Part shown: one piece after another, positions 480 through 61,498 of the stretch | Layout of the letters: every line of letters starts with the position of its first letter | Numbering within the stretch: the stretch's first letter is position 1 | Origin: Escherichia phage Ecwhy_1 | Length of the DNA: 64,000 bases | Strand: one strand, 5' to 3' | Sequence record: MH791411.1 | Position numbers and translations under genes: made by a program | Notes under the pieces: model-generated | The model's database searches: none | What the model saw: only the letters and a program-made list of their open reading frames with translations | What the model was told of the DNA's origin: nothing

Positions 480-1604
480 TTATAGTTTAAATGGCGAGAA
501 TGTATCTCCTTGGATATCATTCACAATACCACCAATGATATAAGAACTGATTTCAGTTTCTTGTGGTGCTACCTGTACAGAACTACCACTTACCCAGTGT
601 TCAGTCCACGGTAGTGGGTTACTCTTGGATACAGTATATGGACATTTGATACCAAGTGCAGTCATACGCTTAGAACCAATCCAGCGAACATACTGTTTAA
701 GAATTTCAGAGTTCAATCCAATAATAGAACCATCTTTAAAGAGGAAATCTGCCCATGCTTCTTCTTGGCGAATAGCAGACATAAACATTTCCAGTACTTC
801 ATCATAGCACTCTTCGGCAATTTTTACCATATCTGGATCTTCTTTCTTTAGAAGACGTAAAATCATTTGTGTTGCTGCGAGATGAAGGTTTTCATCACGA
901 CAAATTAGACGAATAATCTTTGCATTACCTTCCATGAGGTTGTTCTCTGCAAATGCCCATGAACAAGCAAAACTAGCATAGAAACGAACACCTTCAAGAA
1001 TGTTAATACTATTCAAACATAACCATAGTTTTTTCTTTAGATCATACATATTAATTTCAATAGTTTTACCATTAACAGTATGAGTACCTTCACCTAATGC
1101 ACGATACAATGTTCCTAGTTCATCAAGGTCATCATAGTATTTTGAAACATCAGCAGCACAATCAGTGATTTCTGGAATGTCCAACATAGTATCAAAAACT
1201 TCAGATGGATTAGGATAAATGTTACGAATAATATGTGTATATGATTTACTATGAATAGCACCTTCAAAGAACGCCCATGTTTCAATAAAGTTTTCAAGTT
1301 CAGGTAGAGATGCATATGGTAGTAGCATTAGATTAGGACCACGACCTTGAACTGAATCAAGAAGGATTTGACGTTTTAAGTTTGATGTAAAGATATGCTT
1401 CTCAGAATCATTGAGGTTAGCAAAATCAATTTTATCTTTAGATACGTCAACTTCACCTGGTGTCCAGAAGAAACTTTTCTGTTGTTCAGTTAGTTTTTCA
1501 AGTGCAGAGTATTTGTTACTTTCAAAGCGTTGAATATCAACACTTTCATCAAAAAACATATTCTTTTCTAGGTGAGACTTCTCATTAATTTTGAAAACTG
1601 ACAT
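480..1604 (-). CDS. nrdB: ribonucleotide reductase class Ia small (beta) subunit
   Basis: 374 aa; di-iron/tyrosyl-radical R2 signature regions (e.g. ILEGVRFYASFACSWAFAE, RDENLHLAATQMI); size matches NrdB. Confidence 0.92.
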   Translation of the reverse strand: MSVFKINEKSHLEKNMFFDESVDIQRFESNKYSALEKLTEQQKSFFWTPGEVDVSKDKIDFANLNDSEKHIFTSNLKRQILLDSVQGRGPNLMLLPYASLPELENFIETWAFFEGAIHSKSYTHIIRNIYPNPSEVFDTMLDIPEITDCAADVSKYYDDLDELGTLYRALGEGTHTVNGKTIEINMYDLKKKLWLCLNSINILEGVRFYASFACSWAFAENNLMEGNAKIIRLICRDENLHLAATQMILRLLKKEDPDMVKIAEECYDEVLEMFMSAIRQEEAWADFLFKDGSIIGLNSEILKQYVRWIGSKRMTALGIKCPYTVSKSNPLPWTEHWVSGSSVQVAPQETEISSYIIGGIVNDIQGDTFSPFKL

Positions 1605-1616
1605 ATATATATTCCT

Positions 1617-2390
1617 TTATGTATTAATTTTATGACCCAATTTATATGATAGCCAATGGATATCACTAATTCCTTCTTGTGAACCCAAGTGTAGTGTAAG
1701 TAGTTCATTCCATGTCAAAACTGTATTATTGTCAGGTGTATGAGCATTGTATCGAGCCATACCATCGGCACATGGGTCCAACGCGAGTATTTGATTACCC
1801 GTAATAGTTTTTGCTGGTGCTTCTAACCCCATCAATGAGCGTATATCATCCGATAGTATTTGAAATGCGGATACTGCTGCAACATTTAATGCAGTAATAT
1901 TATCTTTGATAAAATCAACCGTTAAAGTTTGATAATATGAAATATAGTTCTTATCAATATAATCCCATTTATCTTTAATGAAATCAAGTGTTAGTTTTTG
2001 GTATCTGGAAATTTCCGACATTACACCATCTCTAAATTCAACAAGGTCATTCCATTTGTCTTGAATAAAATCTTGTGTTAGTTTTTGATACTTAGCAACA
2101 GTATCCAGAAAGTTATCTTTGAAGTCATTCCATTTTTCCATAATCAATTCCATTGGCATGACTACATATTGTGCAATAACATTTTTATCAAACCACTCCC
2201 ACTTTTCTTTAAGAAAATCAGTTGTCATTGTTTGATATCGAGCTAACATATTAGGGTTCATTTTATCAAAATGTTTTTTTATAAAGTCTTGTGGGAGTTT
2301 TTGATAGCGAACAATCATATCCATATCAAGATCATCCCAAAATTCTTCTATGAATCCAATATCTATTGGACTACGATAGTCAACTTTCAT
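1617..2390 (-). CDS. tandem-repeat protein of unknown function (six ~33-aa repeats, consensus around YQKLTxDFIKDKWD)
   Basis: 257 aa; repeats visible directly in translation (RYQKLPQDFIKKHFD / RYQTMTTDFLKEKWE / KYQKLTQDFIQDKWN / RYQKLTLDFIKDKWD / YYQTLTVDFIKDNIT); sits between nrdA and nrdB. Confidence 0.6.
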   Translation of the reverse strand: MKVDYRSPIDIGFIEEFWDDLDMDMIVRYQKLPQDFIKKHFDKMNPNMLARYQTMTTDFLKEKWEWFDKNVIAQYVVMPMELIMEKWNDFKDNFLDTVAKYQKLTQDFIQDKWNDLVEFRDGVMSEISRYQKLTLDFIKDKWDYIDKNYISYYQTLTVDFIKDNITALNVAAVSAFQILSDDIRSLMGLEAPAKTITGNQILALDPCADGMARYNAHTPDNNTVLTWNELLTLHLGSQEGISDIHWLSYKLGHKINT

Positions 2391-2435
2391 TATATCACTC
2401 CTATGAAATAAATCCCGCCGAAGCGGGATCTTTAA

Positions 2436-4754
2436 TTAGATCTTACAACTATCACAATCACCTTCATCTAAGTCAGGTAGTGTAGGTAACACAAACTGTC
2501 CTGATTCTGGTTTTGCAGCTTCTTTTAGTACTTTCTCAACATCAACTTCATCAGAACCATCATTAGTATTATGATAGTACAGATTTTTCAAACCAACTTT
2601 GTATGCATACATTAGTTCAGTTAGTAGTGTTGACATTGGCAACTTACCATCAGGGAAGTGTGCTGGATTGTAACTGGTATTCACACTAATACTTTGGTCA
2701 ATGTATTTCTGAAGAACACCACAGATTTGTAGATAACCGATGTTATCTTTCTGATCCCATAGTAAATCATATTTGTTTTTCAACTTATTGATTTCAGGAA
2801 CGACTTGTTTAAGAATACCATCTTTAGATAGTTTCTTGGTTACAAGTGAACGAGGTTTCTCAATACCATTAGTACTGTTACTGATTTGTGCACTAGTTTC
2901 TGCTGGCATCAGTGCCATAGTTGTTGCATTACGAATACCATATTGTTTGATATCCTGACGCAATGTTTCCCAATCTTGTTTTAGTTCAGGAGATACCAAC
3001 GCATCAATATCTTCTTTATAGGTATCAATTGGTAGAATACCTTTAGCATATTTTAGTGTGTCAAAACCTTCACACTTACCTTTCTCTTTAGCAAGCTGTA
3101 CGGAAGATTTAATTAGATAATAAGACCATGCTTCAGCCCACTCGTTAACTGTTTCCAATGCAGCTTCATTGTAACGCAAACCACGTTTAGCAAGGAAGTA
3201 TGCAAAGTTAATGATACCAACACCTAATGGGCGGTACATTTTTGTTGCACGATCTGCATGAACTACTGGGTAGTCTTGATAATCCAATAGAGAATCAAGA
3301 GCACGTACAGAAAGATCACAAGCAGTTTCCATATCTTCTGGTCGGTCAAAGTTACCCCAGTTGATTGCACTCAAAGTACATAGACTAATCAAACCTTCAC
3401 CAGTATTAATATCATCAAATGGCACAGATGGTAGTGCGATTTCTTGACACAAGTTGGATTGTTCAATTGGTGCAATTGATTCAATAAAGGTTGAGTGTGT
3501 GTTTGCATGGTCAATGTTTTGAATATAGATACGACCAGTTTCTGCACGCTCAGTCATTAGAGTACTGAATACTTCAACAGCAGATACAGATTTTTTACGA
3601 ATGCTTGGATCAGCTTCATACTTCTTGTACAGCTTTTCAAATTCTTTTTGGTTAGAACAGAATGCTTCATATAGCCCAGGAACTTCATTAGGACTAAAGA
3701 ATGTAATATTCTTGCCATCAACTAAACGTTGATATAGTGTTTTGTTCACTTGGAAACAATAGTCAAGTTGTCGAACACGGTTGAACTCAGTACCTTTGTT
3801 ATTTTTCAGTACTACAAGATTGTCAAATTCCAAATGCCACAATGGGAAGTGGACGGTTGCTGCACCACCACGCACACCACCTTGAGAGCAGCTTTTAACG
3901 GTCTTAGCAGTTGATGCAATGAAAGGAATCAAACCAGTGTGTACTGCATCACCTGAACGAATCTCGGAGTCCAGAGCACGAATGCGGCCCATATTGATAC
4001 CAAGTCCAGCTTTACGGGAAATATAACGTAGTATAGCGTGGTTAGAAGAACCAATACTATCTAGACTATCTCCAACGTTTAGTACTACACAAGAACTAAA
4101 CTGACGTGTATTGGTACGTAGACCAGCCATGATAGGAGTCGGGAGACTGATATCAAAGTTACTAACAGCATCATAAAACTTCTTAACATAAGACATACGT
4201 ACAGAGCGATCATACTCCATAAAGATGATTGCTGCAATGGTCATATATGCCATTTGTGGAGTTTCGTAGATTTTCTTAGTTACGCGATTCTTATATAGAT
4301 ACTTTCCTTCCCACTGACGCATAGCAACATAAGTGAATTTATCATCACGTTTATGTTTGATGTAACGTCCAAGCTCTTCAATTTCTTGAAGTGTGTATTT
4401 CTCAAGAATTTCTGGATCATAGATTTTTGTATCTACCATTTCTTGTAGATGTGCAGTGTATTTGATAGGGTCATAGTCGCCATACACTTGCTTACGGATA
4501 CTATAATTTAGTAAGCGACCAGCAACGTATTGGTAGTTTGGTGTATCTTCAGAAATAAGTTCTGCTGCTGATTTAATCAGAATATCATGAATAGTATTTG
4601 TTTCAATACCTTCAAAGAATTGAAGTTGTGCACGAATTTCAATTTCGGAAACAGATACACCACTCAGCCCTTCGGCAGCAAAAAATAAAATTTGATGGAT
4701 CTTATCCAAAGATAACGGTTCTTTTTTTCCATTACGCTTGGTTACGTTAATCAT
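2436..4754 (-). CDS. nrdA: ribonucleotide reductase class Ia large (alpha) subunit
   Basis: 772 aa; N-terminal ATP-cone (VTKRNGKKEPLSLDKI), active-site region CSQGGVRGGAATVHFPLWHLEF, C-terminal Cys pair (DCDSC). Confidence 0.92.
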   Translation of the reverse strand: MINVTKRNGKKEPLSLDKIHQILFFAAEGLSGVSVSEIEIRAQLQFFEGIETNTIHDILIKSAAELISEDTPNYQYVAGRLLNYSIRKQVYGDYDPIKYTAHLQEMVDTKIYDPEILEKYTLQEIEELGRYIKHKRDDKFTYVAMRQWEGKYLYKNRVTKKIYETPQMAYMTIAAIIFMEYDRSVRMSYVKKFYDAVSNFDISLPTPIMAGLRTNTRQFSSCVVLNVGDSLDSIGSSNHAILRYISRKAGLGINMGRIRALDSEIRSGDAVHTGLIPFIASTAKTVKSCSQGGVRGGAATVHFPLWHLEFDNLVVLKNNKGTEFNRVRQLDYCFQVNKTLYQRLVDGKNITFFSPNEVPGLYEAFCSNQKEFEKLYKKYEADPSIRKKSVSAVEVFSTLMTERAETGRIYIQNIDHANTHSTFIESIAPIEQSNLCQEIALPSVPFDDINTGEGLISLCTLSAINWGNFDRPEDMETACDLSVRALDSLLDYQDYPVVHADRATKMYRPLGVGIINFAYFLAKRGLRYNEAALETVNEWAEAWSYYLIKSSVQLAKEKGKCEGFDTLKYAKGILPIDTYKEDIDALVSPELKQDWETLRQDIKQYGIRNATTMALMPAETSAQISNSTNGIEKPRSLVTKKLSKDGILKQVVPEINKLKNKYDLLWDQKDNIGYLQICGVLQKYIDQSISVNTSYNPAHFPDGKLPMSTLLTELMYAYKVGLKNLYYHNTNDGSDEVDVEKVLKEAAKPESGQFVLPTLPDLDEGDCDSCKI

Positions 4755-23242: not shown

Positions 23243-28477
<5,235 letters not shown>

Positions 28478-28494
28478 TCACTTTCCCAGATTTG

Positions 28495-28570
28495 ATAAAT
28501 AATATCATAGAGATCAGGGAATATTGCCTTAAATTTAAATGTGGTTTATATTTTTTGATAAATAATATTA
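28495..28570 (+). promoter_or_regulatory. two tandem late-promoter-like elements (ATAAATAATAT, T4 late TATAAATA-like) upstream of paralogous gene pair
   Basis: GATAAATAATATCATAG at ~28494-28510 and GATAAATAATATTA at ~28557-28570, followed by AAGGAG RBS and ATG at 28611. Confidence 0.5.
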
Positions 28571-28610
28571 AGCAGGGTGTTCCTGCACAAAATTTGACAA
28601 GGAGATTTTT

Positions 28611-29210
28611 ATGAGTCTTAATTCTTTTAACCGTAACTATGGTATGTCTGCTACTGCTCGTGAATACTGGGGTGGTAACAATGGTTTCGTAACCATCGTT
28701 GTTGATCTACCAGCAGATGTTGAAGTTGGTACTACCGCTGTTACTTCTGACGGTTCCGAAATTCAAGATGAAGCACTACAAACTGCAATCAGTAATGCTC
28801 AATACAACCAATTCATGATTACCCAACTACTACAACAACGTGCAGTACTAGTTACTACTTCCGTACTAGCTCTAGACACCGCTGTTGTTATCCCTGCTGA
28901 CTTTAAAACAGTTGGTGGTAACGTAATCGCGTTTGGTACTAGTGGTGCTGATGTTGCGGGTGGTGCTGGTTCTGTTGCTCTAACCTTCATCTGTGAACGT
29001 CAAGACGTATTTGACAAACAAGAAGTTCGCCCAGGTGCTGCTTACTCTGTTCCAGTTGATCCAACTGTTGAACTAGCTAAAGCAATTGCACAAGCTAAAT
29101 TCTTCCGTACCAAATCTTATGTTGCTCTAGGTACTGATGGTGTTGGTGATGCTGCTGCGGCTGACGCTGTTGCAATTAAAGTTCGTGCTGCTCTACCAGT
29201 ACAACTATAA
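28611..29210 (+). CDS. putative abundant late protein, paralog A (199 aa), function unknown
   Basis: Strong RBS, late-promoter-like motifs upstream, biased codon choice (CTA Leu, CGT Arg, GCT Ala); shares segments with the next ORF. Confidence 0.7.
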   Translation: MSLNSFNRNYGMSATAREYWGGNNGFVTIVVDLPADVEVGTTAVTSDGSEIQDEALQTAISNAQYNQFMITQLLQQRAVLVTTSVLALDTAVVIPADFKTVGGNVIAFGTSGADVAGGAGSVALTFICERQDVFDKQEVRPGAAYSVPVDPTVELAKAIAQAKFFRTKSYVALGTDGVGDAAAADAVAIKVRAALPVQL

Positions 29211-29225
29211 TAGGGGGACTACAAT

Positions 29226-29915
29226 ATGTCTAATACTAATACTTCTTTTGAACGTATCAATGGTTATTCCTTTGATAAAATTCTAGGTTACTTCTGTGGT
29301 AAAAACGCCCTAGCATCTATCGCAATTAGTAAAATTGGTAATGTTAACGTGCGTGTTACTGGTGCAGTTGGTTCTTTCGCTGGTCTACAACGTTTCCTAA
29401 ACACTGACGTAGCTGATGAAATCGTTGCATATCTAAACGAAAAAGGTATCATCCGTATCGATGGTACTCCATTTGAAGCAGCAACTCTAGAAGCTGATTA
29501 TAACGCTGCTTACGCTGCACAAACTAACGTTAAACGTATCGTTGATGTTGTTCAACAACGTGCAGTTATCATCGCTACTTCCGAAATCGCTGGCAACGAC
29601 GCTGACCCATTCGCAGTTACTGGTTTTACCAACGCTGCTGACGGTATCCTAAGTGTTGGTGCTGTTGATATCGCTAGTGCTTCAGTAGTTACTTTCCTCG
29701 TTGAACGTGCTAACGTATTTGATAAAGATATTCAATCTTTCCAAGGCGTTCCAAGTACTGAAATCGAAGAAGGCCGTCTACTAATTGATGACCTAACCGC
29801 AGTTCCACTACTCGCTAAAGATGGTGTTACTGAAGTTGTTCTACGTTCCCAAGCTGCTGATGCTGCTGGTGACTTCGGTATCAAACTATTCAAATTCATC
29901 CCAGCGATGGTTTAA
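29226..29915 (+). CDS. putative abundant late protein, paralog B (229 aa), function unknown
   Basis: Paralogous to 28611-29210 (QQRAV-[IL]-TS...VFDK blocks); followed by strong terminator. Confidence 0.7.
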   Translation: MSNTNTSFERINGYSFDKILGYFCGKNALASIAISKIGNVNVRVTGAVGSFAGLQRFLNTDVADEIVAYLNEKGIIRIDGTPFEAATLEADYNAAYAAQTNVKRIVDVVQQRAVIIATSEIAGNDADPFAVTGFTNAADGILSVGAVDIASASVVTFLVERANVFDKDIQSFQGVPSTEIEEGRLLIDDLTAVPLLAKDGVTEVVLRSQAADAAGDFGIKLFKFIPAMV

Positions 29916-29937
29916 TAAATTAAAGATAAAAGAAAAG

Positions 29938-29962
29938 GAGAGCTTTTGCTCTCCTTTTTTTA
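29938..29962. terminator. bidirectional rho-independent terminator (GGAGAGC-tttt-GCTCTCC flanked by A-run and T-run)
   Basis: Perfect 7-bp stem with TTTT loop between convergent genes. Confidence 0.7.
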
Positions 29963-30712
29963 TTTGTATGAACGGAACCCTTCAGGTAAACCAGGTAGAT
30001 TCTCTAACCCTTCGTTCGCATTCACTAGCTTTACGTCATAATCATCACTGAAATCATCCGTAGCTAGTTTACGCCCCATGTCTCTAACGAAGTTGTCAAT
30101 AATTTCTTCTTCGTCATTGCCTGGATGACCTTCCGCTTTTAACTTTTTCCAAAAGTATTCATTATAATCAAAAACAAATTCAACTTCATTTGTTTCTGGA
30201 TTAAGTACTACATCCAAATCAATCCAAGGTTCTTTACGTAAAGTAAAGATTTCCTTTGAATACTCTTGTTGTGTAATCTCTTCATAACGATATGCAAACT
30301 CGATAGCTTTAAGACGTTTGTCATCACCATCAGGCATTAGTTCGATTACTTCCATATCATACTCTTTTTGAGTAATTGCACCAGTACTTAATTTAGCATC
30401 AAGTAATTTTACATTATACTCATCACGGGTAATCTTGGAATACTTCAATTGTACATCTGCCTGTGCTATTAGATAATCAAGAGTTTCTAATACATTGTAT
30501 TTCTTTTTGATATCCAACTGTGCTACATCAACTTCATATGGTGTTAGATATGTAAGTTCTGCAACTAACATATCAGCTTCATAATCATCGTTATAGTAGT
30601 ATGCTTTCGCAATCTCTTTCGCTTTACCAGAAAGTCCCCAATGAGCGGGGACCATCCAGAAAGGAATAAACCTTTTTTTAGCCATTTGATTTCTTACCAA
30701 AAATTTCTTCAA
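29960..30712 (-). CDS. hypothetical protein (250 aa)
   Basis: Clean ORF. Confidence 0.5.
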   Translation of the reverse strand: MKKFLVRNQMAKKRFIPFWMVPAHWGLSGKAKEIAKAYYYNDDYEADMLVAELTYLTPYEVDVAQLDIKKKYNVLETLDYLIAQADVQLKYSKITRDEYNVKLLDAKLSTGAITQKEYDMEVIELMPDGDDKRLKAIEFAYRYEEITQQEYSKEIFTLRKEPWIDLDVVLNPETNEVEFVFDYNEYFWKKLKAEGHPGNDEEEIIDNFVRDMGRKLATDDFSDDYDVKLVNANEGLENLPGLPEGFRSYK

Positions 30713-31188: not shown

Positions 31189-31255
31189 TTTTTGTCTTCC
31201 TTTACTTATTTTTAAATCAAAAATTTGGGGAACTCCATGTTCCCCATTATTTATA

Positions 31256-31987
31256 TTAGCAACCTGTTACGTAAATCTTGTATACCGCAATACCAGTGTC
31301 TAGAGTTACGTTTAGCATACCAGTTTTGGTAATACCTAGGGTAACAGATTCTGCGTTAGAAACGCGGGATAGAGCTTGTAGAACACGGTCAATGTTATAA
31401 CCAAAACCAAGACCTAGTTCACCTTCAGTTTTAGAGAATGCTAGTGCACCAACGTGGTTACTTTTGTTCTTCTCACCAACGTGGAAGTAAAGAGTATCAC
31501 CTTCAGTGTATGGAGTTACTAGAGAACTGAAAGATTTAAACACACCAGAGAAGCTTTTTAGTTCCTGAACTTTAGCTGCACTAGGTGTAACCTGTACGTC
31601 ATATGGTTGTTCGTGGAAACGAGGCTGGGCTGGAATTAGTTTTTCTGGTTGAACCATGAAAGTAGTACTTGCATCTTCTGCTTTGAATGCTAGGCTCTTA
31701 ACTGCACCATCTTTCAAGTTAGAAGTGATAGTAGTTCCTTCAGTACTATAAGTTTTTAGAGACATTAGACCCTGTAGAAGACCTAGGTTACCAAGACCAA
31801 AACGACCTTGAACTTCTGGTACGTCTTCTTTAGTGTGAGCACGCATAACTAGGGTGCGGTCATCGGTGTATGCTTCCATGTAAACACGCTGTCCATCACC
31901 ACGGTCTTCACTGCTAACTGCGATACAAGAAAAGTCGATGCCGTTGGTAGTGTTAACTAGGTCACGTAGTACGTTGCGTAGATCCAT
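31256..31987 (-). CDS. possible DNA polymerase sliding clamp (gp45-like), tentative
   Basis: 243 aa, near gp45 size, close to DNA polymerase; only weak local resemblance. Confidence 0.4.
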   Translation of the reverse strand: MDLRNVLRDLVNTTNGIDFSCIAVSSEDRGDGQRVYMEAYTDDRTLVMRAHTKEDVPEVQGRFGLGNLGLLQGLMSLKTYSTEGTTITSNLKDGAVKSLAFKAEDASTTFMVQPEKLIPAQPRFHEQPYDVQVTPSAAKVQELKSFSGVFKSFSSLVTPYTEGDTLYFHVGEKNKSNHVGALAFSKTEGELGLGFGYNIDRVLQALSRVSNAESVTLGITKTGMLNVTLDTGIAVYKIYVTGC

Positions 31988-40009: not shown

Positions 40010-41185
40010 TTACATGAAAGTAACGTTTTTGATAGCGATTTTGCTGTAGTAGTCAGCAGCGTTACCAAGAGAAGAAGTACTATCAGTCAATTGTACATAA
40101 CCATACCTGGTAAGGAAAGTTGTGACCAATTCCCCAGTGTTAGGGTCCATTACAGTACCGGAAGCCATTAGTGGGATGTATGGGCAATAGAACACACCAG
40201 CATCAGTTTCAGCATTACCTTTATAACCAATCAAAATGTCCTCGACATCTGAGGCATACGTATCGACAAAAATACGCATGGTGCTGTTTAGAGTACCAAC
40301 GAATTTAACGTTAGTTGGAGCTTCGAAAGTACCTTCAGTAGTACGTGCAAAACTAGAAGTAGTTGCAGACTGTAGAATGGTTAGAGCGGTTGGAGAAACA
40401 ACAGCCCAGTTCGCAGCACCACGTTTGGTACGACGAGCAACTTCGTTCGCTTGACGGTTGATTAGGGTAGCTAGAGCAGCGTGCTCGTCACCAACGAAGG
40501 TCGCAACACCAGTAACTTTAGATTGGTCATAAGTTACAGCAGCAGCACCAGGTAGTGCACGTAGACGGCTTAGTAGCTCTTGGTCGATTTCAACGGTAAC
40601 TTCTTGAGCGATTGCAGCCATTAGTTCAGCTTCAACATCGATACCATGTTGGGATTGTGCATCTTGTGCAGATTCAACAGTCCAACGTGCAGATAGACGA
40701 CGAGATTTCGCTTCAACAGTTTCACGTAGGATACGGATGTTAACGCGACGACCCATAGTACCTTCTAGTTGGCTAGTAGGAGCAGCTTGTGGGTTGCTGT
40801 TGTCTGCGTTTAGGTCACCAGTATAAGACTTAGCGATTTTGTATGGAGAAAGCATTTCTTCACCAGCGATAACACCAGGAGCGTTGTCAGCATATTGAAC
40901 ACGTAGGGTGTGGATCTGACCAACTGGGCCAGTCATTGGCTGAACACCGATGATTTCGTTAGCGATTACGGTTGGCATAACACGACGCATAATTGGTAGA
41001 ATCACTTTGTTTAGAGTAGCGATGTTACCAGCGGTGGTTGCACCAGAAGTAGCAGATTCGTTTAGCATTAGTTTACGATGGTTATCAAGTACGGTTTCCA
41101 TTACGGACTTACGAGTACCTTGTAGACCTTCAACTAGTTTCTCTTTAACTGCTACCCATTTGGATTCATTTAGTAGTTGTGACAT
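40010..41185 (-). CDS. major capsid protein (T4 gp23/gp24 family)
   Basis: 391 aa; HK97-fold gp23-like, N-terminal propeptide-like region; late promoter + AAGGAG upstream; strong terminator downstream. Confidence 0.85.
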   Translation of the reverse strand: MSQLLNESKWVAVKEKLVEGLQGTRKSVMETVLDNHRKLMLNESATSGATTAGNIATLNKVILPIMRRVMPTVIANEIIGVQPMTGPVGQIHTLRVQYADNAPGVIAGEEMLSPYKIAKSYTGDLNADNSNPQAAPTSQLEGTMGRRVNIRILRETVEAKSRRLSARWTVESAQDAQSQHGIDVEAELMAAIAQEVTVEIDQELLSRLRALPGAAAVTYDQSKVTGVATFVGDEHAALATLINRQANEVARRTKRGAANWAVVSPTALTILQSATTSSFARTTEGTFEAPTNVKFVGTLNSTMRIFVDTYASDVEDILIGYKGNAETDAGVFYCPYIPLMASGTVMDPNTGELVTTFLTRYGYVQLTDSTSSLGNAADYYSKIAIKNVTFM

Positions 41186-41229
41186 TATTATCTCCTTAAA
41201 GATGTTATATTCGTTTTTCAGTATGATAT

Positions 41230-41237
41230 TATTTATA
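41230..41237 (-). promoter_or_regulatory. late promoter -10-like element TATAAATA upstream of MCP
   Basis: Minus-strand TCTATAAATAATATCATACTG ~50 nt upstream of MCP ATG. Confidence 0.5.
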
Positions 41238-42438: not shown

Positions 42439-42446
42439 TATTTATA
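42439..42446 (-). promoter_or_regulatory. late promoter -10-like element TATAAATA upstream of scaffold gene
   Basis: Minus-strand AAAAATATAAATATTTG upstream of AAAGGAGA RBS. Confidence 0.45.
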
Positions 42447-43109: not shown

Positions 43110-43943
43110 TTAGATTTTTGGTTGTGATTTTGGTAGTGGAGAACGAGATTTAGAAGCGGTATTTTTTGGCTTCGCAACATCTTTCATTTCGCCACGAGCA
43201 TTTTTACCTAGGTCTTCATCAGTGTGGGACATAGCATCTTCGTTTTCAAAATCATAATCTACTTGTTTTTCGGAAGCTTTAGCGAATTTCACTGGAGCAA
43301 CACCTTGAACTGGAGATTTAGCTTCTGGGGCAACTGGAGACTTGGTATTAACGCCAGCTTTTTCTTTCTTATCAACCGCAGCAACTTGCTTAAGTTTGAA
43401 AGACTCACCAACTTTCTCATCACCGAATTGTACATCAGCAAATTCGTCTTCAGATTCTTCACCATCAGCACCGAATTCTTCTTCCGCACCAACTTCAACT
43501 TCTTCGTCGTCAGAACCTAGGTCAACTTCATCACCACCGATTTCGTCAAACATTTGTTGTAGGCCACGGAAAGCATCTTGAATAGATTCCCATTGGTCTT
43601 CGGAAGGAACTTCTGCACCAACTTCTGCTTCAGCGTCAACTTCTTCGCCATCAGCATCAGCAGAGAATTCAACTTCTTCTTCTGCACTTTCATCTTCTTC
43701 ACCTAGGGTGTATTCGATTTCAGCATTTAGACCAGCGTCTGGTTGAACATCAAAGTCTTCGTCAAGTTTTTCTTCGTCTTTGACTTCAACTTCACATTCT
43801 TCTTCGTCCATGCTTTCTTCTAGTTCTTTATTGATTTCTTGAGCTTGCTCAACAAAGTACTTACGCATTTTTTTATCAGCAACATCTTGTTCGCCGTTTG
43901 CAAACGCTTCAATTGCTTCTTGTAGTAGTTTTAAATTCGCCAT
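43110..43943 (-). CDS. acidic prohead core/internal protein (gp67/gp68-like by composition and position)
   Basis: Strongly Glu/Asp-rich; preferred start is second ATG (ATGGAGGATATAATG, GGAGG as RBS). Confidence 0.5.
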   Translation of the reverse strand: MANLKLLQEAIEAFANGEQDVADKKMRKYFVEQAQEINKELEESMDEEECEVEVKDEEKLDEDFDVQPDAGLNAEIEYTLGEEDESAEEEVEFSADADGEEVDAEAEVGAEVPSEDQWESIQDAFRGLQQMFDEIGGDEVDLGSDDEEVEVGAEEEFGADGEESEDEFADVQFGDEKVGESFKLKQVAAVDKKEKAGVNTKSPVAPEAKSPVQGVAPVKFAKASEKQVDYDFENEDAMSHTDEDLGKNARGEMKDVAKPKNTASKSRSPLPKSQPKI

Positions 43944-44043
43944 TATATCCTCCATAGATATATTACATTCATATAAAGTATGATATTATTTAGTACTGAA
44001 AAATTTCGCCATTTTTAAAAGCTTTAAAAAGTGCGATTTTTGT

Positions 44044-52993: not shown

Positions 52994-54025
52994 TTATAGT
53001 GATCTGTAAATTTGGATTAGAAGATTTTTATCGAACATAGGTGAATCAATTTCCATGATTTGTTGTAACACAATCTCATCAACTGACTCAGTACTTTCAA
53101 AGCTTTCACCATCTTCAATAAGTTCTTTGATACTTTGCTTGCTAGTAACAACGTTAAACTCACGAATGTTATAAAGTTTAGTAAAAGTATCACGAATAAA
53201 ACTAATCTCATCAGTAGTGATAGCAATATCAACTTGAACCTTTGAAATAGTATTGTCTTGAAGATAATAACTTGGATCTGTTAATAGTTCTGAAAGTGTA
53301 AATGTTCTATATTTTGGTGCTTCTGACCAAGAATGGAAAGTTGGTTCTTTACCATGTTCTAAAATCATCACACCTCTTGCATCATCCCATGTATCAGAAA
53401 AGTTATGTGGGAAACAGTTACCTGTGTAAATTACACGAGTTCCTTTAGATGTTGTTTTTGCTTGTCTCTTGTGGAAATGTCCACTAAAAACATACTCACA
53501 ACCACCAAAAGAACCTTCAGTCTCTTTACCATGATCTGGCATCTCAACCATTTTATTGAGCAAGTATCCAGGTAACTCTAAGTGACCAAAAACATACTTA
53601 CTTTTAAGTTGAGGTAGAACTTTGTATTCATCTTCAATCATAAATGGAATGAAAGTACAATCATCAAATGTTGTGATTTCATTAATGAACTCGATGTTCT
53701 CATAAACTTGTGCCATATTAATACTAGTAATGTCACGTTTATTTTTATGATACATGTCATGGTTCCCAACTAAGAAGTAAACCTTATCAAAGTTGTCATT
53801 TAGTAATTGTAGAATTTGTAAACCATAGTTTAATGTTTGAATGTTAATATTACTGCGGTTATGGAAGTAATCTCCCATAAACACGCATACAGTAATACCA
53901 TTTTTCTTAGCAAGTTCAATCATAAACTTGATGAAGTTCAAACAATCTTCGTTGTGCTGCTTGCTGTTATTCTTTAATCCTAAATGAATATCAGTAAATG
54001 TAATTGCTTTATCAAATAGAGCCAT
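52994..54025 (-). CDS. Mre11/SbcD-like nuclease (T4 gp47-like)
   Basis: Start at MALFDK; phosphoesterase motifs DIHLG, GDYFH, GNHD. Confidence 0.85.
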   Translation of the reverse strand: MALFDKAITFTDIHLGLKNNSKQHNEDCLNFIKFMIELAKKNGITVCVFMGDYFHNRSNINIQTLNYGLQILQLLNDNFDKVYFLVGNHDMYHKNKRDITSINMAQVYENIEFINEITTFDDCTFIPFMIEDEYKVLPQLKSKYVFGHLELPGYLLNKMVEMPDHGKETEGSFGGCEYVFSGHFHKRQAKTTSKGTRVIYTGNCFPHNFSDTWDDARGVMILEHGKEPTFHSWSEAPKYRTFTLSELLTDPSYYLQDNTISKVQVDIAITTDEISFIRDTFTKLYNIREFNVVTSKQSIKELIEDGESFESTESVDEIVLQQIMEIDSPMFDKNLLIQIYRSL

Positions 54026-54851
54026 CTTCGTTTTTCCTTTCAATCATGTTCATTTCAATTTCGATTTGACGAGTGTGTGATGGTGTAAAACCATGCATCT
54101 CAAGTAAATCGTCTCGGATGTTACGAACATTTTTCTCACTATTAAGAATCGAACGGAAACTATTGTTAACGAACGAAGTATAGTAAGAGAAAGGATTCAA
54201 CTGTACTGCTGGTTTATCTTTTTTGTAAAGAATACTCTCTTTAAAGAGAAGTGCGTTTTTAACTAATTGTATTCTGGCATCACCCATCATTTCATCCAAA
54301 TATGTATAGTTTCTATAGTTGGATTTGTGTGAGATTTCCTCTGCCAGTTTAATGAACATTTTACCTAGTTCATTAGTGATTTTACCATGAACAGTACTGA
54401 ATTCTCCGTCTTCAAGATCACCTTTCCAGTGAGAACGAACGACTTCGTACAGAATACCTTCTTCATCTACAATGTAATGTTTGAATGGTTCAAAATTTAC
54501 TCTTGTATCTGCTGGGATATGTTCATCGGTAATTACACGAATAACCACCTCATCGATAGGTACATCAGTCAGTACTAAATTGTGCTCATCTGCGTATTCC
54601 TTCGCTTTCTTCGCACTCATACCTTCTTTTTCACGAATTGCATCAAGCATTTCATTGTTGAGACGTTTAATACGTGCTGCTTTAGCTTTATCTAAAAGTT
54701 CTGCTGTAATTTCGGATTCATCAAAAACGATATAATCGTACATACTGTAGCACTTATCTAGTAACCAGCAATATGAGATTTTACTTTTTTGTATCTCACG
54801 AAGTAAATCAGCATTGTTAAGATACTTTTTACGCTTCGGCCTATTTGTCAT
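54012..54851 (-). CDS. late-transcription sigma factor (T4 gp55-like) with large internal insertion
   Basis: Start at MTNRPKRKKYLNN (GGAGAG upstream); N-region KKYLNNADLLREI and C-region ITNELGKMFIKLAEE...NPFSYYTSFVNNSFRSI resemble gp55; ~279 aa versus ~185 in T4. Confidence 0.6.
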   Translation of the reverse strand: MTNRPKRKKYLNNADLLREIQKSKISYCWLLDKCYSMYDYIVFDESEITAELLDKAKAARIKRLNNEMLDAIREKEGMSAKKAKEYADEHNLVLTDVPIDEVVIRVITDEHIPADTRVNFEPFKHYIVDEEGILYEVVRSHWKGDLEDGEFSTVHGKITNELGKMFIKLAEEISHKSNYRNYTYLDEMMGDARIQLVKNALLFKESILYKKDKPAVQLNPFSYYTSFVNNSFRSILNSEKNVRNIRDDLLEMHGFTPSHTRQIEIEMNMIERKNEDGSI

Positions 54852-54939
54852 TATTTCAACTCTCCATGTTTTAAATCCAATAGGTACATTCCTTGTACCA
54901 TCAATGTTATTATAGCACCAAAAACGTCTTTGTCCCACG

Positions 54940-54947
54940 TATAAATA
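54940..54947 (+). promoter_or_regulatory. late promoter -10-like element TATAAATA upstream of first baseplate-module gene
   Basis: CACGTATAAATACATC ~36 nt upstream of ATG 54983; divergent from the sigma gene. Confidence 0.45.
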
Positions 54948-54982
54948 CATCAAATGTTCCCTTCTTATGGAGAATCAAAAAG

Positions 54983-58308: not shown

Positions 58309-60972
58309 ATGGCAGATACAAGTAAGAAATATGCCCAACAACAGTTGGGTCGTTTTGACCCTTCGTATCCACAACTAGCAACCGTGATGGATAACCGTGA
58401 CCCAACTAAATCCGGTAAGCTAAAAGTGTGGATTCAAGGTTCACAAAGTGATAAAAATTCAAAAGAGTCATGGATTGAAGCATCATACATGTCTCCATTC
58501 GCTGGTAAAACTCCAGGGATACCAAGTGCTGATGCTTATGGTCAATATCCAAAGGGATATGGTTTTTGGGCGGTTCCACCTGATGTCGGATGTACTGTTG
58601 TTGTTATATTTGCACAAGCAAGAACATTCCAAGCGTATTGGATTGGTTGTGTTTATGACCAACGTATGAATACGATGGTTCCTGGGATGGCTACTGAAAT
58701 AAGCAACTATGCTGGTACTGATATGCCATTACCCGTAACTGATTATGACCGTAATACAATTTCTACCAGTACTCAAGACAAATATGCAAACGTTCCAATT
58801 ATTGCAGGTCTGAAAAAACAAAACTTACTTTATGATGAGGAAGCGGGTGTTGCTAACCGTAGCAGTACTCGCCAGACCACCAGTACTGTTTATGGTCTTT
58901 CCTCACCTCGTGGTAACAGTTTTATTATTGATGATGGTTACACAGAAGAAGAATTAACAGCACCTACATGGGATCAAGATCCAGATGGTTATCAGGATAC
59001 CCAATTCAATAACCCAGTGAACGATACTCGTGTTGGTTCTCGTAAAAATGAAGGCGTTGTAATTAAAACACGTAGTGGTGCACAGTTGTTGTTATCTGAA
59101 GCCTCTGGTGATGTTCTTTTAATTAACCGTGATGGTACTGCACGTATTAAATTCACTGGTGAAGGTGATATTGAAATGCACTGTGATAAGAATATTAACA
59201 TTCGTGCAGGTCAAGATATTAACATGGTTGCTGGACGCTCATATAATATTGAAAGTGGAGCAGACTTCAATGCTCGTGTTGGTGCAAACACTAAACTAGA
59301 TTTGGTTGGTGCATTGGATGCTAAAGTTGGTGGTCAGGTTGTTATTAACGCTGGAGCAGATTTACGTTTAGTAACAGCAGCTTCATTACGTATGCAAAGT
59401 GGTAGCAGTACTGATATAACTGCTGGTTCTAATGCGTCAATCTCTGCTGCTACCAGTGCTAATCTTATTGGTTCTTCATCAGCTATTATTAGTGGTGGTG
59501 GTCAAACTCTTACTGTTAACAGTGGTGGTAATAGTGGTACTGCTGAATTTAATGCACCAAACTTCCGCACCCCATCTGCTGGCTTGAATGATCATATACA
59601 TGATATATCGGCTTGGGTTGATGCTGAGAATCACGGCAGTACTGTTGAACCTCCACGTCAAGGTGGTGGTAGTGGGAATAGTGAATCCCCAGTTCAACCT
59701 GAACCTGCTAATGATGTAGCTCCAACTTTAGCTCCAGTACAGGACACTGAAGCAATTCAATATGTAAATTATACAACAGAAACAGAACAAGTTCAAACAC
59801 AAGATTTAATGACTTCTGATCCTGGTATGACTGGTTATAGCATTACGTATGAAGGTCTTCATATGTTCATGCCGTGTAGTGGAACCATTCGCCAATACGG
59901 TTATTGGGGGAAAGGTGTCCCGACTAGTGGTGGTGGTAAAGCTGATAGAAGTGGCTGGGAAATACAGTGCAAGGGTGATGTTGTAGCTCCAGATGGCGGT
60001 GTAGTTGTTATCACTAATGGTGCTTTATTGGTTCAACATAAGTCTGGATATAAATCTGTATTTTATAATATTCAATCAGATTTGCTCAATAAAGACGTTG
60101 TTCAAAAAGGTCAAGTTATCGGTAAAGCTAATGGTGTTATTCAATTTGAAATAAGAGTTACCTCTGCCAACGTACTAGGATTTAGTGGTTCAGTTGACCC
60201 TGGATTATTCTATGCATCCCAGACTGGTACAGGTTCTGAAGCGGGAAATAAAACATTAATTGCAGGACAAGCAACGAACCAAGCAGCACCGAAAGCTGTT
60301 GTTCAACCTTCTGTTGATAGTGATGAATTAGTTGTAACAACTAAAATTAAAACTATCGGTACTGGGTATTCTCAACGTGGTTCTCGTCATGTCCCTCGTC
60401 GTAGAAGAACACAACGTTCAGGTGGTACTCCAGCACCCACTGCACAAGAATCATACAATGTGGGTAATGTTGATAAGACTGCAATTGATTGGAAAGTTGT
60501 TCCAGGTGATTCACAATTTATTTCTGAATTGAAAGAATATGAAGGAACAATGGCGTATCAACAAGCTAAAGGATATTACCGCAATGGTAAATTCTGGAGA
60601 TATTTGGACAGTCGTGGGTTCCCAACCATCGGCTACGGACACTTGATCGTTGGTGGTGAAAACTTCTCTGGTGGGATTACCGAACAGGAAGCCAATGATA
60701 TGTTGGTGCGTGATAGTAGTAAGGCTATATATGACGCAAAATCCATTTACGCTTCTTATAAGATGAAAACACCTTACATGGCACAACAAGTTCTATGTCA
60801 AATGGTATTCCAGATGGGTAAAGGTGGTGTAATGAAATTTAAGTCAATGCTATCTGAAATGGCTAAAGGTAACTACAAGCAAGCTGCTGCTCAAATTCGA
60901 AATTCAGCTTGGTATCGTCAAACTACACGCCGTGCTGAATTAATGGCACGTAGATTAGAGGCATGTCAATAA
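58309..60972 (+). CDS. baseplate central spike protein (gp5-like) with beta-helical repeats, M23-like domain and C-terminal T4-type lysozyme domain
   Basis: 887 aa; Gly/Ser-rich repeats (VGANTKLDLVGALDAKVGGQVVINAGADL), M23-like beta segment (GWEIQCKGDVVAPDGGVVVI...), C-terminal GFPTIGYGHL...MVFQMGKGG...SAWYRQT lysozyme signature. Confidence 0.75.
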   Translation: MADTSKKYAQQQLGRFDPSYPQLATVMDNRDPTKSGKLKVWIQGSQSDKNSKESWIEASYMSPFAGKTPGIPSADAYGQYPKGYGFWAVPPDVGCTVVVIFAQARTFQAYWIGCVYDQRMNTMVPGMATEISNYAGTDMPLPVTDYDRNTISTSTQDKYANVPIIAGLKKQNLLYDEEAGVANRSSTRQTTSTVYGLSSPRGNSFIIDDGYTEEELTAPTWDQDPDGYQDTQFNNPVNDTRVGSRKNEGVVIKTRSGAQLLLSEASGDVLLINRDGTARIKFTGEGDIEMHCDKNINIRAGQDINMVAGRSYNIESGADFNARVGANTKLDLVGALDAKVGGQVVINAGADLRLVTAASLRMQSGSSTDITAGSNASISAATSANLIGSSSAIISGGGQTLTVNSGGNSGTAEFNAPNFRTPSAGLNDHIHDISAWVDAENHGSTVEPPRQGGGSGNSESPVQPEPANDVAPTLAPVQDTEAIQYVNYTTETEQVQTQDLMTSDPGMTGYSITYEGLHMFMPCSGTIRQYGYWGKGVPTSGGGKADRSGWEIQCKGDVVAPDGGVVVITNGALLVQHKSGYKSVFYNIQSDLLNKDVVQKGQVIGKANGVIQFEIRVTSANVLGFSGSVDPGLFYASQTGTGSEAGNKTLIAGQATNQAAPKAVVQPSVDSDELVVTTKIKTIGTGYSQRGSRHVPRRRRTQRSGGTPAPTAQESYNVGNVDKTAIDWKVVPGDSQFISELKEYEGTMAYQQAKGYYRNGKFWRYLDSRGFPTIGYGHLIVGGENFSGGITEQEANDMLVRDSSKAIYDAKSIYASYKMKTPYMAQQVLCQMVFQMGKGGVMKFKSMLSEMAKGNYKQAAAQIRNSAWYRQTTRRAELMARRLEACQ

Positions 60973-61009
60973 ATATTTCAGTACTATAAATAATAATGAG
61001 GAAATCTTT

Positions 61010-61498
61010 ATGAGTAAATGGGAAATCAAAAATACCGACGAACAATTTTTTAAAGAAATTAAAGAATTTGAAGGTACTATTGCGTATCAGAAAAAACTTG
61101 GTTATTTTAAAAATGATAAGTTTTGGGTATATAAAGACAGTCTAGGTCTTGATACCATTGGTTACGGTCACCTTGTACTTAAGGGTGAAAGTTTCAAAAA
61201 TGGACTCACTGAAGCAGAAGCTGATGCTCTCCTTATAAAAGATGCTCAGACCGCTTACAATGACGCAAAATCAATCTATGATCAATTTGGAATGACTGCT
61301 CCAGTACAGGTTCAGCGTGTATTGTGGTTTATGGTGTTCCAAATGGGTAAATCAAAAGTTTTAAATTTCAAAAAAGCGATGGCTGCTCTCGGTCGTGGTG
61401 ATTATAAAACTGCTGGTAAAGAAATGCGTGATAGTTCGTGGTACAAACAAACCACATCCAGAGCGGAGAAGATGGCTCGCATCGTCGAATCCGTATAA
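61010..61498 (+). CDS. T4-type lysozyme (GH24 muramidase), standalone
   Basis: 162 aa; EFEGT, LDTIGYGHL, MVFQMGKSKV, SSWYKQT match T4 lysozyme catalytic/signature regions; paralogous to the spike C-domain. Confidence 0.8.
   Translation: MSKWEIKNTDEQFFKEIKEFEGTIAYQKKLGYFKNDKFWVYKDSLGLDTIGYGHLVLKGESFKNGLTEAEADALLIKDAQTAYNDAKSIYDQFGMTAPVQVQRVLWFMVFQMGKSKVLNFKKAMAALGRGDYKTAGKEMRDSSWYKQTTSRAEKMARIVESV

Follow-up and report, generated by a model that had tools for sequence, protein, structure and literature searches.

Two paralogous late virion-protein genes of the RaK2-like Escherichia phage Ecwhy_1 and their candidate role in an outer capsid layer

We analyzed a 64,000-nt stretch of DNA from Escherichia phage Ecwhy_1 (sequence record MH791411.1), hereafter the window, in which two adjacent plus-strand genes encode paralogous proteins of 199 and 229 amino acids (aa). 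Almost certainly the pair is a late operon whose products are abundant structural proteins of the virion. To the further reading that the two proteins make up an external decoration, or cement, layer of the capsid we give about an even chance. The genes, their paralogy, the abundance of their products in virions and the late-promoter motif have already been published, and database records label the products "virion structural protein". What the present analysis adds is evidence against a tail tube placement, a confident model of a fold that has no solved relative, a conserved and uncleaved N-terminal arm, and indications from codon adaptation and evolutionary rate that favor the capsid surface. 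The features of the region, numbered from the first nucleotide of the window, are as follows.

28494-28505, plus strand: P1, the distal late-promoter-like element, GATAAATAATAT; its ATAAATA core is kept in phages 121Q, RaK2 and CBB
28557-28568, plus strand: P2, the proximal late-promoter-like element, TTTGATAAATAAtATTAAG, 44 nt 5' of the start codon
28572-28586, plus strand: hairpin GCAGG-GTGTT-CCTGC in the 5' untranslated region, directly 3' of P2
28599-28604, plus strand: Shine-Dalgarno sequence AAGGAG of gene 1, 6 nt 5' of the ATG; invariant in four aligned phages
28611-29210, plus strand: gene 1, 199 aa, 20.7 kDa, isoelectric point (pI) 4.5; ortholog of RaK2 ORF107w, phAPEC6 gp210, 121Q gp618, CBB_271 and GAP32 gp265
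29213-29218, plus strand: Shine-Dalgarno-like sequence GGGGGA of gene 2
29226-29915, plus strand: gene 2, 229 aa, 24.3 kDa, pI 4.5; ortholog of RaK2 ORF106w, phAPEC6 gp211, 121Q gp617, CBB_270 and GAP32 gp264
29930-29961, both strands: bidirectional intrinsic terminator, with a 14-bp stem between an A-run and a T-run

Virion proteins, paralogy and codon bias

Published mass spectrometry has found the orthologs of both proteins in virions, each time in relatives rather than in the source isolate, and the same holds for the evidence on abundance and lack of trimming given below. In phAPEC6 the sequence coverage was 69.8% for gp210 and 69.9% for gp211, with 74.9% for the major capsid protein (PMC7247149 Table 1). 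In CBB it was 56.4% for CBB_271 and 91.3% for CBB_270, the highest of 55 proteins, with 68.1% for the major capsid protein (PMC5259590 Table 4), and in RaK2 it was 53.5% for gp107w and 55.4% for gp106w, both labelled "putative tail protein" (PMC3622015 Table S3). GAP32 264 and 265 were likewise detected in virions. The RaK2 authors described two distantly related proteins that were abundant among the virion proteins resolved on sodium dodecyl sulfate gels and that migrated at their predicted masses (PMC3622015). That the pair encodes abundant, virion-associated late proteins had been proposed from the letters of the sequence in the initial annotation of this DNA; the ortholog data uphold that reading, which was already in print.

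The raw CBB virion data also bear on processing. The peptide INGFSESGVLGYFYGK (CBB_270 residues 5-20) occurred in 11 rows and NYGMSANSR (CBB_271 residues 9-17) in 8 rows, so that the first virion peptides begin at residue 5 of CBB_270 and residue 9 of CBB_271, each behind a tryptic site. Because these N-terminal peptides are present, the N-termini are retained in virions and the N-terminal arm is not a cleaved targeting peptide, with which the unshifted gel mobility of the RaK2 proteins agrees. Counted as peptide rows, a crude proxy for abundance, the two CBB proteins gave 91 rows over 218 aa and 69 rows over 186 aa, compared with 146 rows over 407 aa for the capsid protein, which is similar per residue.

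The two proteins matched each other in BLASTP (E 2e-6, 35% identity over 83 aa), and both matched PHROG 9326 over their full length (gene 1, E 2.8e-82, residues 1-199; gene 2, E 8.3e-81, residues 4-229). A joint alignment of both subfamilies (74 sequences) had nine invariant columns, and the main difference between the proteins is a helical insertion of roughly 35 aa in the longer one. The comparisons indicate that genes 1 and 2 are true paralogs, as had been noticed at the outset. Both proteins are acidic, fairly hydrophobic and rich in Ala, Val, Thr and Gly, and they are 74% and 72% identical to their RaK2 orthologs and 81% identical to those of 121Q. A profile search of 1.84 billion representative proteins returned only 41 clusters for the PHROG 9326 family. 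The named homologs, among them the orthologs in RaK2, phAPEC6, 121Q, CBB and GAP32, all come from RaK2-like phages of enterobacteria and Xanthomonas and from one Vibrio phage, and every RaK2-like genus sampled has the family, which is small and confined to RaK2-like phages. The first inspection had found no T4 protein family to which the pair could be assigned, and searches of Pfam, PHROG and NCBIfam matched none. The proteins do belong to a named family, PHROG 9326 or RaK2 gp106-gp107, so that the outcome which the initial annotation had named as refuting its reading, assignment to a known family, came about in part.

The codon choice of the pair is extreme. The effective number of codons was 30.0 for gene 1 and 27.8 for gene 2, and no other full-length gene of the window has so low a value. 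Leu was encoded by CTA in 92% (gene 1) and 87% (gene 2) of cases, compared with 27% window-wide and 77% in the capsid gene, in keeping with the heavy use of CTA remarked on in the initial annotation. With the capsid gene as reference, a comparison that the initial annotation had suggested, the codon adaptation index (CAI) was 0.746 and 0.726 for the pair, ranking first and second of 71 genes scored; the capsid gene scored against itself gave 0.718, and the tail sheath and tail tube genes of phage vB_Ec-M-J gave 0.60 and 0.56. Since the CAI of the pair lies above that of the capsid gene and well above those of sheath and tube, the codon bias of the pair is at the level of the capsid rather than the tail. 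The capsid contains 1620 subunits, and 25 hexameric sheath rings correspond to about 150 sheath subunits (PMC7247149). The window (1-64000) contained no tRNA genes, despite the extreme preference of its highly expressed late genes for the Leu codon CTA.

Strong codon bias was also seen in a minus-strand gene for a 243-aa protein (31256-31987; PHROG 12062), in which 79% of Leu codons are CTA and the CAI is 0.64. Its phAPEC6 ortholog, gp215c, was detected in virions, and the protein is 95% identical to its 121Q counterpart and only 54% identical to that of RaK2. Just downstream of the gene is a perfect 8-bp hairpin (31226-31246), which scored as a terminator on both strands.

Signals of the late operon

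The tandem late-promoter-like elements, the AAGGAG ribosome-binding site and the strong bidirectional terminator that the initial annotation had pointed out were all found. The 12-mer GATAAATAATAT occurs at 28494-28505 and at 28557-28568, both upstream of the pair. With one mismatch allowed, the window held five matches, with 1.27 expected, and none of 100 shuffles gave five. The core ATAAATAATA has six copies in the window, five of which are intergenic and lie 15-107 nt upstream of a gene on the same strand; the genes so preceded include the major capsid gene (40010-41185), the gene for a 434-aa virion protein and a lysozyme gene. If 10% of the DNA is taken to be intergenic, the binomial probability of this placement is about 5e-5, a figure that overstates the significance, intergenic DNA being AT-rich. 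At P1, the 15 nt of ATAAATAATATCATA are identical to the region upstream of the major capsid gene, and the ribosome-binding site AAGGAGAT is common to gene 1 and the capsid gene. P1, P2, AAGGAG and the hairpin are all conserved in 121Q, RaK2 and CBB, which represent three genera, and across these genera the block TTTGATAAATAA..TTAAG at P2 is nearly invariant.

ATAAATA was earlier proposed to be the late promoter of the CBB/GAP32 phage group, by analogy with TATAAATA of T4 (PMC5259590). As in a T4-type late transcription unit, TATAAATA-like elements stand in two copies 5' of the pair, and the motif is also found upstream of other virion genes, those for capsid and scaffold among them. A gene for a gp55-like late sigma factor is annotated in 121Q and RaK2; its ortholog in the window (54012-54950) was not recognized by Pfam. 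Literature searches found no transcriptome for the RaK2-like phage group.

A transcript from P2 probably begins at the hairpin or close to it. In RaK2 the hairpin reads GTAAG...CTTAC, which differs from GCAGG/CCTGC by two compensatory pair changes, and in CBB it has 6 bp. It may serve as a 5' stem-loop that stabilizes a very abundant mRNA. The two genes are only 15 nt apart and are therefore taken to be co-transcribed; no terminator-like site was found between them. The terminator at 29930-29961 (dG -23.4 kcal/mol, z -5.1) was detected on both strands and also serves the convergent minus-strand virion-protein gene at 29960-30685. Together these signals suggest an operon in which a gp55-type late sigma factor would read the two tandem T4-like late promoters (ATAAATA), giving a transcript that would bear the conserved hairpin close to its 5' end, have strong ribosome-binding sites, use the best-adapted codons of the region and end at the bidirectional terminator. 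Such a design would yield very large amounts of two acidic paralogous proteins (20.7 and 24.3 kDa), to be built untrimmed into the virion.

Further ATAAATA(ATA) motifs were found at 41227-41236, 24574-24583, 42439-42446 and 31248-31255 on the minus strand and at 60986-60995 on the plus strand. They lie just upstream of the capsid, 434-aa virion protein, lysozyme and scaffold genes, and one follows the gene for the 243-aa protein. The sites would permit a window-wide map of late transcription units.

Placement in the particle

AlphaFold2, supplied with the family alignments, gave models with a predicted local distance difference test score (pLDDT) of 87 and a predicted template modeling score of 0.82 for the gene 1 protein, and 78 and 0.75 for the gene 2 protein. 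Both models show a ferredoxin-like, two-layer alpha/beta sandwich around a 25-residue helix, to which the longer paralog adds its helical insertion. Foldseek found nothing for the models among all PDB chains, a BFVD search returned only family members and uncharacterized phage proteins, and PDB sequence searches gave nothing usable for either protein. The structure prediction that had been suggested as a check thus produced confident models, and the fold search that went with it produced no relative in the PDB. Matches to Pfam and NCBIfam were sub-threshold noise (OxRdtase_C; Mmp10, 24.6 bits against a cut-off of 350), and the label "hemagglutinin repeat" given to phAPEC6 gp211 is treated here as unsupported. 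As modeled, the pair has a fold without a solved relative; it corresponds neither to the tube and Hcp folds nor to the Soc, gpD, Dec or Ig-like folds of decoration proteins. Conservation in the family peaks in residues 1-30, which include four of the nine positions that are invariant across both paralogs, yet the monomer model gives residues 1-20 a pLDDT of only about 45-53. An N-terminus that is conserved yet unstructured suggests a partner-binding arm that would become ordered only on its partner.

The only published suggestion of a placement is that the tail tube is made of one of the two proteins. The RaK2 authors proposed it from size, abundance and predicted beta-sheet content (PMC3622015), and the 20-24 kDa of the pair is indeed close to the mass of T4 gp19. 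The suggestion is probably wrong. In vB_Ec-M-J, three tube-family genes directly follow the 887-aa sheath gene (two matching PHROG 4542, E 7e-86 and 1e-80, and one PHROG 13438), and this sheath and tube cluster is about 85 kb from the pair. The pair matched no tube model of PHROG or Pfam even at E<=1, alignment of the family profile with the phage's own tube protein by hhalign gave a probability of 0.2%, and the models do not have the beta-sandwich fold of tube and Hcp proteins. The codon adaptation of the pair, moreover, is above that of the sheath and tube genes. We are confident that the pair is not the tail tube, and a tube role for either protein is very improbable. Within the window, genes of 887 and 162 aa at 58309-61498 were considered as sheath and tube and rejected; they are a baseplate hub/lysozyme gene and a lysozyme gene.

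Cryo-electron microscopy of phAPEC6 (10 A) and 121Q showed an elongated second-layer protein, present in the same number of copies as the capsid protein (1:1) and meeting across two-fold axes of local symmetry, as well as a separate protein at each hexamer center and a penton cap, all of them unassigned (PMC7247149); 121Q has the same ridges across the two-fold axes. Literature searches found no high-resolution structure of a RaK2-like capsid. We favor the outer capsid layer because the codon adaptation of the pair is at capsid level, because both proteins are acidic, fast-evolving and uncleaved at the N-terminus, where they carry a conserved unstructured arm, and because an unassigned 1:1 layer has been seen by cryo-electron microscopy.

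The evolutionary rate was estimated from nonsynonymous (dN) and synonymous (dS) substitutions between the source phage and 121Q. For the pair dN was 0.12 and dN/dS was 0.24 and 0.18, compared with dN/dS of 0.03-0.04 for capsid, portal and polymerase and 0.13 for the tail fiber. Since the dS of the pair is not above that of neighboring genes, the difference reflects faster protein evolution rather than gene replacement, and horizontal replacement was rejected as the source of the 19% divergence from 121Q. Fast evolution fits a surface-exposed protein.

Several points weigh against the outer layer. The phAPEC6 authors left open that the capsid protein itself contributes the second layer as one of its domains (PMC7247149). 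Known decoration families (Soc, Hoc, gpD, Dec, pb10 and others) gave no match in Pfam, PHROGs or NCBIfam and no fold match in the PDB, so the predicted fold is that of no known decoration protein. Neither coverage nor peptide rows give a good measure of copy number, and the small phAPEC6 virion proteins gp347, gp306c and gp253 also have high coverage. T4 internal proteins typically combine a high dN/dS with a conserved N-terminus, both of which the pair shows. Finally, these phages also have an inner body that would need hundreds of copies of small proteins.

That last point leads to the strongest rival of the outer capsid layer, that the pair are internal head proteins. They would build the 91 x 18 nm structure, the inner body, that bubblegram imaging revealed in 121Q and phAPEC6; they would enter the head along with the DNA and might be expelled into the host. 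An inner body is indeed present, and no protein has been assigned to it (PMC7247149); by our own estimate it would call for hundreds of copies of a 20-kDa protein. In phiKZ such a body consists of abundant paralogous proteins (PMC7247149 discussion), and the evolutionary pattern just mentioned would suit proteins of the T4 internal type. Yet in T4 and phiKZ the prohead protease trims the known internal and inner-body proteins, and the source phage has a gp21-type protease, which cuts its capsid protein from 42 to about 37 kDa, whereas the proteins of the pair keep their N-termini in mature virions, run at their predicted masses and show no removal of a targeting peptide. Being acidic (pI 4.5) and rather hydrophobic, they would also be unfavorably placed within condensed DNA, which argues against a DNA-embedded role. 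There are, besides, other candidates for the inner body, namely the RCC1-like "DNA condensation" paralogs found in virions and a very acidic 281-aa protein encoded beside the protease gene. An inner-body role for the pair is accordingly unlikely, at perhaps one chance in several.

The 281-aa virion protein (PHROG 15696) is encoded on the minus strand at 43110-43955, between the protease and portal genes. It has a pI of 4.05 with 85 Asp and Glu residues, its CAI of 0.69 is the fourth highest in the window, and its dN/dS against 121Q is 0.28. It is a plausible component of the prohead core or the inner body.

A somewhat weaker candidate than the inner body is decoration of the tail, in which the pair would form extra sheath rings, the anchor of the "hairy" whisker fibers or a fiber polymer. 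In phAPEC6 there is unassigned decoration density at two levels of the tail, and fibers are found at three annular positions and on the capsid; speculatively, subunits could exchange strands by way of the conserved N-terminal extension. The family is, however, present in all RaK2-like genera sampled, RaK2 and GAP32 included, and the CBB paper leaves the presence of hairs on GAP32 open (PMC5259590). Tail sites would take a few hundred copies at most, against a codon adaptation that equals or exceeds the capsid's and clearly exceeds the sheath's, and the globular 20-kDa alpha/beta models are unlike fiber subunits. We consider tail decoration improbable.

Under the favored reading, the outer capsid layer, both proteins would bind the mature T=28 shell after expansion by way of the N-terminal arm and would form the elongated second layer, at roughly one copy for each major capsid subunit, the copies meeting across two-fold axes of local symmetry. 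The two paralogs might be placed as a pseudo-symmetric pair. More tentatively, at somewhat less than an even chance, the paralogs form a hetero-oligomeric cement lattice in which each is anchored by a disordered arm that orders on the shell; if so, the lattice would be a new structural class of capsid-stabilizing protein specific to RaK2-like jumbo phages. The pair is among the most abundant particle proteins of a widespread group of phages with 350-kb genomes, whose hosts are E. coli, Klebsiella, Salmonella and plant pathogens. Several of these phages are under consideration for therapy. If the pair is the second capsid layer, it would help account for the stability of a T=28 shell that encloses 350 kb of DNA, it would bring a new fold to the decoration proteins, and it would be a high-copy, fast-evolving surface protein of possible use for display or with a possible role in immune recognition.

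Genomic setting and comparison with known systems

The 1.6-kb region of the pair is 99.5% identical to that of Escherichia phage vB_Ec-M-J and eight other coliphages and about 82% identical to those of 121Q, PBECO4 and phAPEC6. On these identities the source phage is assigned to Asteriusvirus. These phages form the E. coli branch of the RaK2-like jumbo myoviruses, whose genomes measure roughly 350-380 kb. Many core genes of the source phage are T4-like, among them those for the portal (gp20), protease (gp21), a gp23-type capsid protein, the polymerase (gp43) and the gp55-like late sigma factor, but the phage is not T4, and the T4 frame of the initial annotation was inexact for a RaK2-like jumbo phage.

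Between 480 and 48292, genes 1 and 2 are the only plus-strand open reading frames (ORFs) of at least 70 aa. The 48-kb run of minus-strand genes around them includes replication genes (5'-3' exonuclease/RNase H, DNA polymerase, single-stranded DNA-binding protein) and late genes (terminase, capsid, scaffold, protease, portal and other virion proteins). The initial annotation had placed the pair on the opposite strand between RNase H and early genes; the strand and the RNase H neighbor were right, and the run is one of mixed replication and late genes. The layout, with the pair on the strand opposite to the RNase H gene, an ORF105-like virion protein gene and GroES, is common to vB_Ec-M-J, 121Q, phAPEC6, CBB and RaK2. 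Vibrio phage 2.275.O (MG592671) has the same layout with three tandem paralogs instead of two (227, 184 and 234 aa; 1135-3206; about 38% identity), flanked by a PIN/RNase H-like gene and by a minus-strand gene and GroES. Because so distant a phage holds paralogs at the same syntenic site, the gene arrangement is old, and because it holds three of them, the copy number of the module differs among distant relatives.

Two observations concern the terminase region of the same run. The terminase large subunit is split into overlapping minus-strand ORFs at 25880-26224 (114 aa) and 24580-25917 (445 aa), which overlap by 38 nt. The split sequence is 99.5-100% identical in at least eight independently sequenced phages, and most of the annotated ones among them list two terminase-related genes there. 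In other Asteriusviruses the terminase is a single ORF, the alignment differing by 1 nt in length, and RaK2 has one 889-aa gene. The split could be a lineage-specific frameshift, possibly a programmed one, rather than a sequencing error. Beside the terminase gene, a minus-strand 228-aa ORF (26196-26882) is 26.5% identical to its RaK2 counterpart, with flanking genes at 72-84%, and by this comparison it would be a local hypervariable gene.

Among known systems, the late promoters of T4 (TATAAATA, read by gp55/gp33) are close to those described here, in that an ATAAATA core likewise lies 15-107 nt upstream of structural genes, the capsid gene included. They differ in having T first; both copies at the pair have G, and the motif extends to ATAAATAATAT. 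The tube proteins of T4 (gp19) and of PHROG 4542 resemble the pair in size and abundance and were proposed as its counterpart in 2013, but comparisons of sequence, profile and fold were negative, and the real tube genes adjoin the sheath gene. Like the pair, T4 soc is an isolated late gene transcribed against its neighbors. The pair is proposed to work in the manner of T4 Soc and Hoc, lambda gpD and other decoration or cement proteins of phage capsids, as small, acidic, unprocessed and very abundant late proteins added to the outside of an HK97/gp23-type shell; it differs from them in having no sequence match and no PDB fold match to such proteins and in that its capsid location is putative. 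In sum, the nearest system is the RaK2 gp107w/gp106w family, whose members are direct orthologs with the same pair order, synteny, promoters and terminator layout. Nothing essential differs between them and the pair of Ecwhy_1, whose subclade diverges from 121Q at about 19% of residues.

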